A stretch of 64,000 nt of DNA from Escherichia coli (GTDB lineage: Bacteria; Pseudomonadota; Gammaproteobacteria; Enterobacterales; Enterobacteriaceae), in the NCBI RefSeq assembly GCF_041886205.1, contig NZ_CP169029.1; one strand, 5' to 3'. Position 1 is the stretch's first letter; each line of letters opens with the position of its first letter. The notes below the pieces were generated by a model, which searched no databases, was not told the origin of the DNA, and saw only the letters and a program-made list of their open reading frames with translations. This document shows positions 55,971 through 63,141 of this stretch, piece after piece. The position numbers were made by a program, and so were the translations under genes.

Positions 55971-56092
55971 GCACGAGAGCCTTTTTTGTCAGCTATCTAT
56001 ACTTTAAGGTGACTGCCAAAACAGACTCGACGTAGCCTTCGAGCTGCGCACCAACACGGCCTCAGATGGGCCACATCTGGAGAAACACCGCA

Positions 56093-56833
56093 ATGTCAGT
56101 TATTGGTCGCATTCACTCCTTTGAATCCTGTGGAACCGTAGACGGCCCGGGTATTCGCTTTATCACCTTTTTCCAGGGCTGCCTGATGCGCTGCCTGTAT
56201 TGTCATAACCGCGACACCTGGGACACGCATGGCGGTAAAGAAGTTACCGTTGAAGATTTGATGAAGGAAGTGGTGACCTATCGCCACTTTATGAACGCTT
56301 CCGGCGGCGGCGTTACCGCATCCGGCGGTGAAGCAATCCTGCAAGCTGAGTTTGTTCGTGACTGGTTCCGCGCCTGCAAAAAAGAAGGTATTCATACCTG
56401 TCTGGACACCAACGGTTTTGTTCGTCGTTACGATCCGGTGATTGATGAACTGCTGGAAGTAACCGACCTGGTAATGCTCGATCTCAAACAGATGAACGAC
56501 GAGATCCACCAAAATCTGGTTGGAGTTTCCAATCACCGCACGCTGGAGTTCGCCAAATATCTGGCGAACAAAAATGTGAAGGTGTGGATCCGCTACGTTG
56601 TTGTCCCAGGCTGGTCTGACGATGACGATTCAGCGCATCGCCTCGGTGAATTTACCCGTGATATGGGCAACGTTGAGAAAATCGAACTCCTCCCCTACCA
56701 CGAGCTGGGCAAACACAAATGGGTGGCAATGGGTGAAGAGTACAAACTCGACGGTGTTAAACCACCTAAGAAAGAGACCATGGAACGCGTGAAAGGCATT
56801 CTTGAGCAGTACGGTCATAAGGTAATGTTCTAA
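56093..56833 (+). CDS. pflA: Pyruvate formate-lyase activating enzyme (radical SAM)
   Basis: ORF 56066..56833; start at ATG 56093 ([23 protein letters not shown]), 246 aa; CxxxCxxC motif ([10 protein letters not shown]). Confidence 0.95.
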
Positions 56834-56844
56834 TTTCCCCGTAA

Positions 56845-56877
56845 AGCGGCAACTTTATTGAGTTGCCGCTTTTTTAT
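56845..56877 (+). terminator. Rho-independent terminator after pflA
   Basis: 10-bp stem agcggcaact/agttgccgct followed by T6. Confidence 0.65.
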
Positions 56878-56914
56878 TCCGCGCTTCATTCTGCTACAGC
56901 GTTTTTAACACATT

Positions 56915-57505
56915 TTATAGTGCATCTACCATATCCCGTACCTGAGATAATAACGACTGATAATAGCTCGCATGAAGTTCTTGCCCATCGAATACCACTG
57001 TATTACACAAGAAAGTGACATCGGCATCTTCAATACCAAGATAACTGCACATATTTATCAAATAATCGCTTATATTTTTTTCCCAGCCCATCTGGACAAA
57101 TGATTCTTTGTCTCCTCCAACCAGCGCCACCCAACGAACTTTATTGAATGGTAATTTGTGCCCATCTCCATAAGCCAGCCCATTATTCCATACTCTGTCA
57201 ATATATCCTTTTAGCATTGCCGGAAAGCTGTACCACCAGAGAGGAAAAACCACCACTAACGTGTCATGTTCAAGCAGCTCTGAATAAAGCTGATGAACCT
57301 CTGGAGAATAACGTTTATCCATATTCTTCCAGTCTGGTTCATCTTCCGGCGTCATCACTGGGTTGAAATTACGCCGATATAAATCGAGTTCCGTCACCTG
57401 TATTTTCCGCTCCATTGCCCGCTGATGGATCGCATCAGCAATATTTGCGGTCAATGAATCATGACGAGGATGAGCCCATACCAAATAAATACGTTCAGAC
57501 TGCAT
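56915..57505 (-). CDS. ycaK: Flavodoxin-like NAD(P)H:quinone oxidoreductase family protein YcaK
   Basis: 196-aa ORF MQSERIYLVWAHPRHDSLTANIADAI...; divergent from LysR regulator ycaN. Confidence 0.85.
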   Translation of the reverse strand: MQSERIYLVWAHPRHDSLTANIADAIHQRAMERKIQVTELDLYRRNFNPVMTPEDEPDWKNMDKRYSPEVHQLYSELLEHDTLVVVFPLWWYSFPAMLKGYIDRVWNNGLAYGDGHKLPFNKVRWVALVGGDKESFVQMGWEKNISDYLINMCSYLGIEDADVTFLCNTVVFDGQELHASYYQSLLSQVRDMVDAL

Positions 57506-57604
57506 AATTTTACCTCCACGTTAAGTTCTGGAGCGCACTTTACGCAGGCGGCATAATCCTGTAAACGTGATGATTCAGGATGAGTTAATGAAGGATTTTC
57601 ACTA

Positions 57605-58513
57605 ATGCGGATGAATATGTCTGACTTTGCCACTTTCTTTGCCGTCGCCCGTAATCAAAGCTTTCGTGCAGCGGGTGATGAGTTAGGCTTATCCTCGTCC
57701 GCCATTAGCCATAGTATTAAAACACTGGAACAACGTCTTAAAATTCGCTTATTCAATCGGACAACCCGAAGCGTATCGTTAACGGAAGCGGGTTCTAATC
57801 TCTATGAACGATTGCGCCCAGCTTTCGACGAAATTCAGATCATGTTAGATGAGATGAATGATTTTCGTCTGACACCGACAGGAACGCTCAAAATCAATGC
57901 CGCCCGGGTAGCTGCACGTATATTTTTAATGCCTTTACTGGTTGGTTTCACACGTGAATATCCTGATATTAAAGTCGAGCTCACAACTGACGATTCTCTT
58001 GTCGATATCGTCCAACAGGGCTTTGACGCTGGCGTTCGACTTAGTGGCATCGTCGAAAAAGATATGATCAGCGTGGCGATCGGCCCGCCAGTGAAATTAT
58101 GTGTAGCAGCAACGCCAGAGTACTTTGCAAGATATGGCAAACCCCTCCATCCTCATGATCTGCTTAATCATCAATGTGTTGTTTTTCGTTATCCCAGCGG
58201 CAAACCTTTCCACTGGCAATTTGCAAAGGAGCTGGATATTGCTGTCGCAGGGAATATCATTCTGGATGATGTTGATGCTGAACTGGATGCCGTTTTGATG
58301 GGTGCTGGTATCGGGTATCTGCTCTATGAACAGATCAAGGAGTACCTTGATACCGGTCGTTTAGAATGTGTACTGGAAGACTGGATCACCGAGCGTCCAG
58401 GCTTCCAGATCTATTACCCAAACCGCCAGTATATGTCCTGCGGCTTGCGCGCATTTCTCGATTATGTAAAAACGGGTCAGATTTGCCAGAGTCAGCGTCA
58501 CCGACCACAATAA
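57605..58513 (+). CDS. ycaN: LysR-family transcriptional regulator YcaN
   Basis: 302-aa ORF with N-terminal helix-turn-helix (FRAAGDELGLSSSAISHSIKTLEQRL) and LysR substrate-binding domain. Confidence 0.9.
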   Translation: MRMNMSDFATFFAVARNQSFRAAGDELGLSSSAISHSIKTLEQRLKIRLFNRTTRSVSLTEAGSNLYERLRPAFDEIQIMLDEMNDFRLTPTGTLKINAARVAARIFLMPLLVGFTREYPDIKVELTTDDSLVDIVQQGFDAGVRLSGIVEKDMISVAIGPPVKLCVAATPEYFARYGKPLHPHDLLNHQCVVFRYPSGKPFHWQFAKELDIAVAGNIILDDVDAELDAVLMGAGIGYLLYEQIKEYLDTGRLECVLEDWITERPGFQIYYPNRQYMSCGLRAFLDYVKTGQICQSQRHRPQ

Positions 58514-59944
58514 TTATTTACTATTCGCTTTACGCGCCAGCAGCGGGAATATCAGTCCTAATCCAACCAGCACAAACGGCGTTGCAACATTCAGCGCCAA
58601 CTGGAAGGTCCACTCTGCGGTGAAGGCTTCCATTTTCGGGAAAATCCCCGTCAGGCAGGCAAAAGCGGTAAAGGCAAAACACCAAATCCCGACGGTCATT
58701 GCCAGAGACTTATTACGAATAAAGACATATTCCGGCTTATATTTCTGCGCCAGGCGAACGACTGCAATAAATGCAACAAATACCCATAAATAACGCAGCG
58801 GCATCACTACCGAGTTAAGATTCAACAGCCATTTATAGAGATTGTTCATATCACCGATGCCGAGAGTCGGCAGCATAATCAGAATTGCCACCAGCACCAG
58901 GGTCAGAAAATAGCCATTAACGGGCGTACCAGAAGCGTTGGTACGACATAAACTGGCTGGAATATATTTGCTGTCAGCATCACCTAATAGCACTTTAAGC
59001 GGGGCATCAATCGAGAATACCAGCGCAGCTACTTGTCCCAGGGTATTCGCAATGGCGTAAATCACCATTAAAGTATTACCCATGTTGTAATACTCGCCCA
59101 GCTTCTGAAAGGCGTAATACTGACCGTTGGTCATTAAGTCATCCGGGATATTACGCGAATCAAACATCATCCCCATCGCCAGCGAGCCCAGAATGGCACA
59201 AACCGCAACCATCACCGCCAGGCATAACATCCCTTTTGGAAATTCTTTTCCTGGGTTGCGCGTTTGATTAACGTAAGGAGAAATCTTCTCTGCTCCGCCA
59301 ACCGCGAAAACCAGCATTGAAATAGTGGTAATGTAGGTAAAGTCGATATGAGGAATGAACGTTTCCCAGGTAATGTTTGTGGTCGCAATATGCACTTCAG
59401 TAATTGCAGGCGCGGTTACCGCCATCGCCACATACAGGAGCGACATAACAAACATAGCAATCCCTGCCACAGAACCGACGATTTTCAGCGATTTCATACC
59501 GCGTGAAGCAACCCACATAAAGAAGATAAACAGCACCAGCGTTAACCCCTGTAACGCTACGACTGAATATTCTTTGATTAACGAACCGTCGCCTTTCATC
59601 GCCCAACCGAGCGCAATCAGTATTGCCTGGGGTTTTTGTGCCAGATAGGGAATATGCACTACCCAGTAGGTCCACGCGGCGAGGTAAGCCAGTCCGGGTC
59701 CCATCGTGTGTTTAATCCAGGTACTGACCCCGCCCTTCCCATCTTTGAAGGTCGAGCCTAACTGACCAACAATTAGCGCATAAGGTGTGAAATAGAGCGC
59801 AAAGATAAACACCCATGAAAAAACAACCACCAGCCCCTGGTTGGCGTAGTTATTAACAACGTTGCCAAAACCCCAGACAGTGATAAAAGACATCAGCGCA
59901 ATGTTGTACCATCGCAGCTGTTTTTCCTGAACATTCCCAGCCAT
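58514..59944 (-). CDS. ycaM: APC-superfamily amino acid/polyamine transporter YcaM
   Basis: ORF 58514..60136; start at ATG 59944 (MAGNVQEKQLRWYNIALMSF) with AAGGA 8 nt upstream; 476 aa; about 12 TM segments. Confidence 0.85.
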   Translation of the reverse strand: MAGNVQEKQLRWYNIALMSFITVWGFGNVVNNYANQGLVVVFSWVFIFALYFTPYALIVGQLGSTFKDGKGGVSTWIKHTMGPGLAYLAAWTYWVVHIPYLAQKPQAILIALGWAMKGDGSLIKEYSVVALQGLTLVLFIFFMWVASRGMKSLKIVGSVAGIAMFVMSLLYVAMAVTAPAITEVHIATTNITWETFIPHIDFTYITTISMLVFAVGGAEKISPYVNQTRNPGKEFPKGMLCLAVMVAVCAILGSLAMGMMFDSRNIPDDLMTNGQYYAFQKLGEYYNMGNTLMVIYAIANTLGQVAALVFSIDAPLKVLLGDADSKYIPASLCRTNASGTPVNGYFLTLVLVAILIMLPTLGIGDMNNLYKWLLNLNSVVMPLRYLWVFVAFIAVVRLAQKYKPEYVFIRNKSLAMTVGIWCFAFTAFACLTGIFPKMEAFTAEWTFQLALNVATPFVLVGLGLIFPLLARKANSK

Positions 59945-60153
59945 AGACAAATCCTTCGCCAAAATTAAAGGGGCATCTGTAAAACGAGGGATTATGCGCG
60001 GCAAATAAGAAGTGCGGAAATAGCGAAATGCAAAATTATAACCTGCTGCACATTTTATTTTTAAACGAATAAAATTTGGAATAAAGCAAGTCAGATAGAA
60101 GAAACAAAAAAGCAGAGTGTGAAACAGTAAGTTCACACTCTGCTTGAATTCAT

Positions 60154-61302
60154 TTACACGTGAGCAACGGGTTTCGGCGTATGACCGGCGTTGCGCAGCA
60201 GCATCAGCAAATAGATAAACGATACGCTGGCGATCATGATAAACAATAAATTATCGGAGAAATTCTGCATTAGCATAGCGGTAAATGACGGGCCAAGCAG
60301 ACTTCCCACAGTATAGCTCAACAGTAAGGCCTGGTTCATCGCCACCAGTTGATGATGTTCAACTTTCTCGCAAGCCCATGCCATCGCCACCGGATATAGC
60401 GTAAAGCCAGCGGCACCGAGGATGAATAACGCTGGGGCCATCGCCGCCTGGCTAAGCATCGCGATACTGCCGAGAATGACGACAAAGACCTGAACACGCA
60501 ACACCAGCAGTCGACCAAACTTATCCGCCAGACGTCCAATCGGCCATTGTCCAAGGATACCCGCACTGACCAGTACCGCCATCCAGAAACCAATGCTGGC
60601 ATTGCTCACCCCTTTGTGATTGAGGTACAGCGGCATCAGGCCATATAGAGATCCCAGAACGATTCCTGAGATAATGCAGCCATTCACGCCAAGCCGCGCC
60701 TGACGGAGTTTTAGCATTGACGTAATTGACGTCGAATCATGGTTTTCAGCCTGCTGATTCAGCACACGCGTAAACAACAGCGGTAAGATCCCTGCCAACG
60801 TCAAACCTGTAACCCACGGCAATACGGACATCAGCTCGGTTGAAACTTTGCTGACCAGTAACTGGCCTAAAAACGTTCCCACGTAATAAACCATCATATA
60901 CGCAGCAAGCAAACGCCCACGGTTACGTGACGTCCCACTGCACATCAGCGCGCTCTCAACAACCACCCAAATCATGGCACAGCCGACGCCCGCGACAAAA
61001 CGCCAAGCCAACCAGCTCCAGAAACCAATCATCAGGCCAAGGCCGGCACAGCCAGCGGCAAAAATGAAGGAGGCCAGATAATAGCTGCGGTTAAAGCCAA
61101 TGCGCTTAATGACATACCCTGTCAGCAATGTACCGACAAGGTTGCCGGTAAAATAGGATGAGCTGACAACGCCTACCTGCCATGTGGACATGTGTTCCTG
61201 GGCGAGCCAAAGCGGCACGAGTGTATTTAACACCGCAATCGCCAGAGTCAACAAAAGCAGGCCAGACAGCAAAAGCATGACAGGCCGGGTATACGTGGAC
61301 AT
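60154..61302 (-). CDS. ycaD: Major facilitator superfamily transporter YcaD
   Basis: 382-aa polytopic [40 protein letters not shown]... Confidence 0.9.
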
Positions 61303-61615
61303 GAATTAAAACCGTGAGGAAGTTCAAATTTCATGCGCATCATGCCACCGCCAAAAACATTGTCAATGGGTGAAAATACGCGATATCCCAGCGGCGGTAT
61401 TATCGATTTATATTACTCATTCATAACGCTAATGCTGAAGAGATGATTAGTCTCATCTGATTGTTTTTATTGAACTAACACAAATTTCATACGCTTCGTT
61501 CAGTCGAAAAATTTCATGGTCACAGCAAACTCATATTTCCCGTCTATGCTTTCAGAGCAATGCATCGCGTCTGATCGATTTCAGACGTACCACTGACTCT
61601 CGAAAGGAGAAGAGG

Positions 61616-62242
61616 ATGACCAAACCGTATGTTCGTCATGATAAAAATGATGCTGCCGTTTTGCTTGTTGATCACCAGGCTGGTTTACTTTCCCTTGTAC
61701 GGGATATCGAACCCGATAAGTTTAAAAATAACGTGCTGGCGCTGGGTGACCTGGCTAAGTATTTCAACTTACCAACTATTCTTACCACCAGTTTTGAAAC
61801 CGGTCCTAACGGCCCATTAGTTCCAGAACTGAAAGCACAATTCCCCGATGCACCTTACATTGCTCGCCCGGGCAATATTAACGCCTGGGATAACGAAGAT
61901 TTTGTAAAAGCGGTCAAAGCGACAGGTAAAAAACAGTTAATTATTGCCGGTGTGGTAACCGAAGTTTGCGTGGCATTCCCAGCGCTTTCAGCCATTGAAG
62001 AAGGGTTTGATGTCTTTGTTGTGACTGACGCGTCAGGGACCTTTAATGAAATTACCCGGCAGTCGGCATGGGATCGCATGTCGCAGGCAGGAGCACAGTT
62101 GATGACGTGGTTCGGCGTGGCTTGCGAGCTGCACCGTGACTGGCGTAATGATATTGAAGGACTGGCGACGTTGTTCTCTAACCATATTCCTGATTATCGT
62201 AATTTGATGACCAGTTATGACACGTTAACGAAGCAGAAATAA
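61616..62242 (+). CDS. ycaC: Isochorismatase-family hydrolase YcaC
   Basis: 208-aa ORF MTKPYVRHDKNDAAVLLVDHQAGLL...; catalytic Cys region (VAGVVTEVCVAF). Confidence 0.9.
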   Translation: MTKPYVRHDKNDAAVLLVDHQAGLLSLVRDIEPDKFKNNVLALGDLAKYFNLPTILTTSFETGPNGPLVPELKAQFPDAPYIARPGNINAWDNEDFVKAVKATGKKQLIIAGVVTEVCVAFPALSAIEEGFDVFVVTDASGTFNEITRQSAWDRMSQAGAQLMTWFGVACELHRDWRNDIEGLATLFSNHIPDYRNLMTSYDTLTKQK

Positions 62243-62247
62243 AAGAG

Positions 62248-62269
62248 AACCGGGGCCGAAACCCCGGTT
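62248..62269. terminator. Bidirectional terminator hairpin between convergent ycaC and dmsC
   Basis: Stem aaccgggg/ccccggtt with A-rich left flank and T-containing right flank. Confidence 0.5.
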
Positions 62270-62277
62270 GTTACTGA

Positions 62278-63141
62278 TTAGCTTGCGACGGCCATCCCCA
62301 CGGTCATATGCAAACCATAGAATACGCCGCGACCGATTAATTCCCCTGCCAGAAGCAGAATGAATGAGACGGATAGTAGCGGAACCGCAGGCTGATAACC
62401 TTTTAGCTGTGGTGCAATCCACAAGCACAGGGCAACGGCCAAAAGCACGATCCGCCAGGACATCAGCGCACCATAGTCCGGCACCAGCGCTGCGGCCTGC
62501 TGCACAGAACTATGAATAGTTGCCAGCTCTGTGCCCTGCATCACTGACATCACGCCACTCACCACCAGTGCCAGTACAGAAATGGCTGGCAGCAGACGCA
62601 TCGCCCAGCCATCGACGCCAGCCAGACTCAGCAACAGGTACCCCAGTAACGGGCCGCCCATGAACATCGTCAGGAAGAAGCCCATCGGCGTCCAGATGCT
62701 GTACCAGGTCGGAACGGTATCAATGCTGTTATACACACGCACCATCATCCAGACAAAGACGACGCCAAGAACCATCGTCACTACCAGCCACAGCGTACGC
62801 AATGCCGGTGACAGCTTTTTCAGCATTGCCAGCAACCAGCCGATGCCGCCTACGGCAAAAAAGATGGAACCGCTGGCGATTTCGTTACTGAGTGCTGAAG
62901 CCCCTACCCGGTTGAGCGAGTTAAAGGCGCGCATCGGTGAACCAAGATGGAGCATAGAGGCGATAAAGCCAATGCCCATCAGCACCCATAAGCCAAACAT
63001 GCAGGCGATAACACGCTGCTGGGCTTCTGCTCTCAGGTCGCCTTTGAGCAGCGCCAAAGCCAGAACGATAAAACCACCCGCTACACATTGCCCGAAGACC
63101 GTGAAGATCATCAGCGGCCATTCATGCCATCCACTTCCCAT
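62278..63141 (-). CDS. dmsC: DMSO reductase membrane anchor subunit DmsC
   Basis: ORF 62278..63204; start at ATG 63141 (MGSGWHEWPLMIFTVFGQCVAGGF), 287 aa; polytopic. Confidence 0.9.
   Translation of the reverse strand: MGSGWHEWPLMIFTVFGQCVAGGFIVLALALLKGDLRAEAQQRVIACMFGLWVLMGIGFIASMLHLGSPMRAFNSLNRVGASALSNEIASGSIFFAVGGIGWLLAMLKKLSPALRTLWLVVTMVLGVVFVWMMVRVYNSIDTVPTWYSIWTPMGFFLTMFMGGPLLGYLLLSLAGVDGWAMRLLPAISVLALVVSGVMSVMQGTELATIHSSVQQAAALVPDYGALMSWRIVLLAVALCLWIAPQLKGYQPAVPLLSVSFILLLAGELIGRGVFYGLHMTVGMAVAS

Follow-up and report, generated by a model that had tools for sequence, protein, structure and literature searches.

A conserved ycaK-ycaN pair in Escherichia coli and its predicted LysR-type operator

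Introduction

The question raised by this locus is whether YcaN, one of the LysR-type transcriptional regulators (LTTRs), controls ycaK, the flavodoxin-like oxidoreductase gene that lies divergent to it, and whether two nearby transporter genes, ycaM and ycaD, belong to the same system. The locus was analysed in a stretch of DNA of 64 kb (the window), to which all coordinates refer. The window comes from an Escherichia coli chromosome; of 5426 complete genomes, 5425 are matched by a 4.9-kb query over the locus, some of them at 100% identity. Where the match is 100% identical, the RefSeq gene order is pflA, ycaK, ycaN, ycaM, ycaD, ycaC. All of these genes are already known and annotated, and the layout is a textbook LysR one. 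Only the conserved map of operator and promoters and a three-haplotype polymorphism are, modestly, new.

Our main finding is that ycaN and ycaK probably form a self-contained two-gene LysR unit, in which YcaN would control ycaK through a conserved dyad. Based on sequence comparison, we give this proposal, taken as a whole, a probability of about 0.7. The pair is laid out as follows.

56915-57505, minus strand: ycaK, ORF of 196 amino acids, NQO-type Flavodoxin_2 NAD(P)H oxidoreductase, putative regulated target
57506-57604, no strand: control region shared by ycaK and ycaN, 99 bp
57605-58513, plus strand: ycaN, ORF of 302 amino acids, LysR-type transcriptional regulator

An earlier reading of this DNA (the original prediction) had placed ycaK, ycaN, ycaM and ycaD, and these positions proved exact when compared with the calls of open reading frames (ORFs), as did the 99-bp gap between ycaK and ycaN. 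The Pfam and NCBIfam matches also agree with its family labels, flavodoxin-like for YcaK, LysR for YcaN, amino acid-polyamine-organocation (APC) family for YcaM and major facilitator superfamily (MFS) for YcaD. Its statement that the transporters flank the pair is wrong. Beyond ycaN come both ycaM and ycaD, and the gene next to ycaK is pflA. The gap shows no difference from the K-12 strain, therefore experiments made in K-12 are directly applicable to it.

Conservation of the pair in other genera

Ten orthologous loci were collected, from YcaN homologues in a protein database with their contigs and, for two of the loci, from a genome scan with YcaK. The taxa are nine Enterobacterales and one Pseudomonas (Pseudocitrobacter, Shimwellia, Limnobaculum, Rahnella, Hafnia, Serratia, Leminorella, Pantoea, AP025685 and a Pseudomonas). 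Each of the ten carries a YcaN orthologue (56-79% identity) transcribed divergently from a full-length orthologue of YcaK (47-66% identity). The two genes are 97-101 bp apart, and the classic LysR arrangement that had been claimed for the 99 bp seen here is therefore kept in ten other taxa. The start codon of ycaK and the ATG of ycaN are both invariant across the 11 taxa, E. coli included.

The genes around the pair differ in almost every genus, and no third gene is common to all. Elsewhere, the neighbours include a two-component system, OpuAC, EamA, MFS, OYE, ADH, CBAH and catalase/ankyrin genes. The ycaM gene is present in 0 of the 10 loci. The ycaD gene adjoins the pair in two of them, Shimwellia and Pseudocitrobacter, with the order pflA-ycaK-ycaN-ycaD-dmsC. 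Since divergence and spacer are kept while the surroundings change, the pair is best described as a single unit under conservation, whose control region is constrained in length. A YcaN homologue in Cedecea (53% identity) has another gene as its divergent partner. This switch indicates that the pairing with ycaK is specific to the YcaN orthogroup.

The scan of species-representative genomes with YcaK returned mostly Paenibacillus proteins, around 40% identical and with no LysR neighbour. There was no close Escherichia match, so the E. coli representative genome presumably lacks the pair. These distant homologues are uninformative about the pair, because they have no YcaN-like neighbour. A foreign origin of YcaK was considered from this Paenibacillus-rich result and dropped; the scan needs exact words of 8 residues and missed real orthologues that YcaN led to, so its outcome owes as much to this word rule as to biology.

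Predicted operator in the shared region

A search for a LysR box of the T-N11-A type within 57506-57604 had been suggested. Bare T-N11-A matches are frequent, with seven starting within the 99-bp gap and twelve within 57480-57640 (161 bp). A simple count was rejected as evidence, because the matches are this numerous and most have poor dyad symmetry. The alignment of the gap over the 11 taxa, with a mean majority-base fraction of 0.67, contains four conserved blocks.

57537-57543: ACTTTAC
57552-57557: nATAAT
57559-57565: CTGTAAA
57585-57605: TTAATGA-N7-TCACTAA

The last of these blocks is the candidate operator.

57585-57605, no strand: predicted YcaN recognition site, 21-bp palindrome TTAATGAAGGATTTTCACTAA, with the T-N11-A core TGAAGGATTTTCA at 57589-57601

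The dyad symmetry of this site holds at 7 of the 10 positions checked. The triplets TGA (57589-57591) and TCA (57599-57601) show no change in 11 of 11 taxa, whereas variation is seen in the 7 bp that they enclose. Only two T-N11-A pairs are kept in all taxa, and the TGA-N7-TCA dyad is one of them. The other one, at 57541/57553, has no dyad symmetry and was set aside as a chance juxtaposition of two -10 elements.

A position weight matrix (PWM) was built from the ten sites outside E. coli and scanned over the 64-kb window, with 20 shuffles as the null. The E. coli site scores 33.4 bits and is the sole match above the null, with 18.5 bits for the runner-up and a shuffle maximum of 19.9 bits. The box that had been looked for in the gap was thus found, as an invariant dyad at 57589-57601 for which the PWM gives no second site in the window. 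With the pairing and the spacer kept in 10 of 10 loci, the dyad and its single PWM match support the claim that YcaK is likely the target of YcaN.

Some other candidates were rejected. The runner-up of the PWM scan lies inside pflB (55371) and is at chance level. A near-palindrome in the coding region of ycaM, TTAATGACCAACGGTCAGTAT at 59117-59137, has 2 mismatches to the box pattern and is expected by chance. The other inverted repeats of the gap, ATCCTG-N14-CAGGAT and AATCCT...AGGATT, are conserved only partly across taxa.

Predicted promoters

The remaining conserved blocks coincide with predicted promoter elements.

57537-57542, minus strand: predicted -10 hexamer of ycaK, TAAAGT, from the promoter scan; conserved
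57560-57565, minus strand: predicted -35 hexamer of ycaK, TTTACA, with a 17-bp spacer, from the promoter scan; CTGTAAA conserved
57552-57557, plus strand: candidate -10 of ycaN, CATAAT; nATAnT conserved, with A57553 and T57554 invariant

The predicted ycaK promoter TTTACA-17-TAAAGT was found by the consensus scan independently of the alignment. Within its -10 hexamer, A57537, T57541 and A57542 are invariant, while C57538 and T57540 are kept in 10 of the 11 taxa. This promoter would place the transcription start site (TSS) of ycaK at around 57530, and therefore the centre of the dyad (57595) at approximately -65. LTTRs canonically have their recognition site near -65 and their activation site near -35 of the promoter that they control (PMC11495319). 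The standard architecture of the family consists of a T-N11-A dyad, a divergent bidirectional promoter and autorepression (PMC11495319).

The candidate -10 of ycaN stands back-to-back with that of ycaK, which would make the promoters overlap, and the predicted TSS of ycaN is at around 57564. The 11-taxon alignment shows no conserved -35 for it. According to another paper, no promoter is predictable for ycaN.

Domain composition of YcaN and YcaK

YcaN contains HTH_1 (PF00126, 9e-21) at residues 7-63 and LysR_substrate (PF03466, 3e-33) at residues 91-290. It reaches no NCBIfam equivalog cut-off, and the top one is YafC, with 158 bits against the 470 needed. Large clusters of truncated YcaN were also observed (P0006, P0017, P0021 and P0045), 187-258 amino acids long and 97-99% identical, with hundreds of members, including Shigella flexneri. 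These clusters suggest frequent pseudogenisation of ycaN or fragments at contig ends.

When compared with classical LTTRs that have a divergent target (BenM/benA, DntR/dntA, CbbR/cbb and IlvY/ilvC), YcaN is likewise a protein of around 300 amino acids with a winged helix-turn-helix and LysR_substrate, and its putative target lies across around 100 bp. Also as in those systems, a T-N11-A dyad of the TNA-N7-TNA form is located upstream of the predicted -35 of the target, within the presumed leader of the regulator, and the bidirectional promoters are predicted to overlap. Unlike in the classical systems, the YcaN site is predicted from sequence alone, the activation sites are not recognisable and the regulator itself falls under the equivalog cut-offs. 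E. coli YhaJ and other regulators of reductases that detoxify quinones or electrophiles are a functional analogy to YcaN only, as transcription factors that sit next to, and control, small oxidoreductases responsive to quinone-like compounds.

YcaK matches Flavodoxin_2 (PF02525) at 5.5e-39, with 134.4 bits (cut-off 27), and passes the NCBIfam equivalog NF007280, “NAD(P)H oxidoreductase”, with 351.3 bits (cut-off 162). Its motifs AHPxxxS and FPLWWxSxPAxLKGxIDRV align with those of solved quinone reductases (4r81, 3lcm/4f8y, 4gi5 and NQO2, 1qr2). We take AHPxxxS and PLWWxxxPAxLKGxIDRV to be flavin-contacting residues, as in NQO1. YcaK therefore shares the PF02525 fold family and the N-terminal motifs with NQO1/NQO2-type and bacterial Flavodoxin_2 quinone oxidoreductases, but these alignments reach residues 2-117 only and the C-terminal third of YcaK is distinct.

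Our best guess from these motifs is that YcaK may be a free-standing two-electron quinone/electrophile reductase. Oxidoreductase libraries include YcaK, and the accessible parts of that literature give no specific activity for it. The protein otherwise appears in broad stress or knockout screens. A RIL-seq (RNA interaction by ligation and sequencing) study reported that a candidate small RNA interacts with a “ycaK.3UTR” RNA (PMC8175672).

Proposed mechanism

In the proposed model, YcaN, presumably a tetramer like other LTTRs, would bind TTAATGA-N7-TCACTAA at 57585-57605. It would also make contact, more weakly, with an activation region that separates the dyad from the -35 of ycaK (around 57566-57584). 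Bound YcaN would control the promoter TTTACA-17-TAAAGT, with activation in the presence of a bound co-inducer as the likeliest mode. Both sites would lie in the leader of ycaN and the back-to-back promoters would overlap, therefore the same binding should repress ycaN. YcaK, as an NQO1/NQO2-type flavin NAD(P)H oxidoreductase, would likely reduce a quinone-like or other electrophilic compound by two electrons. Compounds of this kind are also the likeliest class of inducer for YcaN.

A tentative and rather doubtful extension of this model is that ycaN-ycaK acts as a compact, horizontally shuffled cassette, composed of a sensor and a reductase, that answers a specific quinone-like or electrophilic compound of particular niches. 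It draws on the control region of around 100 bp with an invariant TGA-N7-TCA and predicted overlapping promoters, kept from Escherichia to Pseudomonas, and on the presence of the pair in no more than about 61% of E. coli genomes. If this extension were true, the pair could be a ready-made biosensor. If the two-gene proposal is true, it would give the first concrete target and operator for one of the remaining uncharacterised LysR regulators of E. coli, with little import beyond annotation.

Neighbouring transporters

The features on either side of the pair are the following.

56843-56872, plus strand: pflA terminator, between the convergent pflA and ycaK
58514-59944, minus strand: ycaM, 476 amino acids counted from the annotated ATG, APC-family permease, neighbour outside the unit of the pair
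60064-60035, minus strand: promoter-like site for ycaM, TTAAAA-18-TATAAT, 10/12 match, beyond the ycaD terminator
60110-60145, minus strand: intrinsic terminator after ycaD, 14-bp stem and T run
60154-61302, minus strand: ycaD, 382 amino acids, MFS transporter, core-genome neighbour outside the unit of the pair

YcaM scores 101 bits against PF13520 (AA_permease_2). It resembles YjeM and GadC, yet stays under both equivalog cut-offs (162 against 400 bits for YjeM and 102 against 640 bits for GadC). In the literature, YcaM has been linked to colistin killing. YcaD scores 138.8 bits against PF07690 (MFS_1) and 730 bits against the equivalog NF002962 (cut-off 361).

The genes ycaN and ycaM are convergent, with their stop codons abutting at 58513/58514. 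Given this convergence, the ycaD terminator and the promoter-like site of ycaM, each of the four genes (ycaK, ycaN, ycaM and ycaD) is a transcription unit of its own. No terminator was seen between the convergent ycaN and ycaM (58401-58514).

Presence and absence within E. coli

Counts within the species were taken over the 5426 complete genomes, with the pair counted as present when at least 80% was matched. The ycaK-ycaN pair is present in 3316 genomes (61%), and only 24 more have any fragment of it. With so few partial cases, ycaK and ycaN are taken to be gained or lost as one. The ycaM gene is found in 4356 genomes (80%), the flanks in 5425 and ycaD in essentially all. Three common forms of the locus were distinguished.

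Full-locus form: ycaK, ycaN, ycaM and ycaD present
Pair-lost form: around 40 bp of filler in place of ycaK and the bulk of ycaN, whose last 113 bp stay beside ycaM
Three-genes-lost form: ycaK, ycaN and ycaM missing; almost nothing between the pflA and ycaD terminators; ycaD retained

The junction stretches of the three forms are at 56876-60103 in the window, and at 1591-1630 and 1577-1580 in the comparison loci L001 and L002. The retained end of ycaN may serve as the 3' end of ycaM. In pair-lost strains, this 113-bp remnant is annotated as a fragment of a hypothetical protein.

The pair has a G+C content of 41-46%, against 50-53% in pflB/pflA and ycaD (window 56750-58250), which fits an accessory islet. 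Its presence or absence at strain level is of possible minor use in E. coli population genomics.

Published data and alternative explanations

Several observations weigh against control of ycaK by YcaN. The predicted box overlaps the Shine-Dalgarno sequence and the start codon of ycaN, which may explain part of its conservation. The placement of the dyad at -65 depends on a promoter with a 9/12 consensus match and on a predicted TSS. YcaN is among seven LTTRs covered by one study, with its role given as “unknown” (PMC9068703). In that work, 702 genes were differentially expressed in a ΔycaN strain grown to late-exponential phase in M9 with threonine, and ycaK is not named among the changes in the accessible part of the paper (PMC9068703). 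Finally, ChIP-exo (chromatin immunoprecipitation with exonuclease digestion) of myc-tagged YcaN in glucose M9 gave six weak sites, none at ycaK/ycaN (PMC8464067). The sites are at cspE, ynjB, yobF, ung, rho and yihQ, with signal-to-noise (S/N) values of 1.06-4.45 (PMC8464067).

Such data would agree with true YcaN targets elsewhere, at ycaC, ycaD, focA or across a broad regulon, with the adjacency of ycaK incidental or the box only autoregulatory. In the ΔycaN strain ycaC is down, ycaD and focA are up and there is a formate phenotype, and the authors predict ycaC and ycaD to be targets (PMC9068703); the ChIP-exo sites also lie away from the locus. Changes in as many as 702 genes at late-exponential phase, however, suggest indirect effects, and the ChIP-exo peaks are near noise, with two of the six adjoining sites of the preceding transcription factor in the same file (yfiD/ung and yihP/yihQ). 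No box-like site is present in the ycaD/ycaC gap (best PWM score 5.6 bits) or upstream of ycaM (-2.0 bits). Other genera have no ycaC beside the pair and usually no ycaD either, while ycaK is always there. We consider targets elsewhere unlikely. No inducer was supplied in either experiment, and together with the 702 genes this makes the published data weakly informative. With the inducer absent, an activator that depends on a ligand is not strongly tested by either data set, but they still give no positive support to our proposal.

Another possibility is that the 21-bp block acts in translation initiation or as part of the ycaN leader, or that a different factor, for example Nac, binds it. The block holds an AAGGA Shine-Dalgarno sequence and abuts the ATG, and one paper cites EcoCyc as predicting Nac control of ycaK. 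The invariant positions, however, are two reverse-complementary triplets, while the Shine-Dalgarno sequence itself varies (GAGAGAA, GATATTT, GGAAAAT, ATAAAAT). The block also accompanies the pair into Pseudomonas and unrelated contexts, therefore the factor that binds it should travel along, and we find this explanation quite improbable. Even less credible is the small detoxification or uptake module of ycaK, ycaN, ycaM and ycaD under YcaN that the original prediction had put forward. The four genes are physically adjacent, and one publication describes ycaN-ycaK-ycaM as a cluster conserved in E. coli and Shigella boydii. This module is not borne out by the layout, since ycaM and ycaN are convergent and ycaD is set apart from ycaM by a terminator and a promoter-like site of its own for ycaM. 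Nor is it supported by the PWM scan, in which both transporters lack the box, by the orthologous loci, where the four genes are not co-conserved and ycaM is missing from all ten, or by the three independent presence/absence classes in E. coli. The transporters ycaM and ycaD are independent neighbours, unrelated bystanders of the pair. A role of YcaK as an ancillary subunit gating a neighbouring transporter, in place of a free-standing reductase, is the most far-fetched of these possibilities. KefF and KefG, the ancillary flavoproteins of Kef K+ efflux, belong to the same Pfam family and share weak, partial similarity with YcaK, which also aligns at residues 77-184 with the KefC-KefF fusion structure 3eyw. 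But YcaK falls far short of their equivalog cut-offs (58.7 against 210 bits for KefF and 51.3 against 240 bits for KefG). Unlike them, it pairs with a regulator and not with a channel; no Kef channel gene is found near ycaK among the neighbouring ORFs of the window, and the transporters beside ycaK are not conserved with it in other genera.

Control of ycaK by YcaN thus remains our preferred reading. Neither the neighbouring transporters nor the pleiotropic ΔycaN transcriptome should be taken as the YcaN regulon.

Other features of the locus

In a scan against Rfam at E ≤ 1, two matches were returned, both around 20 bits under the gathering thresholds and none credible. A tRNA scan of 56000-62500 gave nothing credible.

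At the ycaK end of the locus, pflA and ycaK converge on a single terminator hairpin (region 56834-56914). The hairpin in the ycaD/ycaM gap has a perfect 14-bp stem. It obtains a terminator score on both strands, with a good T run on the minus strand only. A weak FliA ChIP site has been reported in the 3' end of ycaD, upstream of ycaM (PMC4183435).

The divergent gap between ycaD and ycaC (61303-61615) has 313 bp and contains a promoter-like site for ycaD, TTGACA-16-CATGAT with a TG, at a 10/12 match. A strong published ChIP-exo peak of YcjW (S/N 47.8) is assigned to ycaC in K-12.

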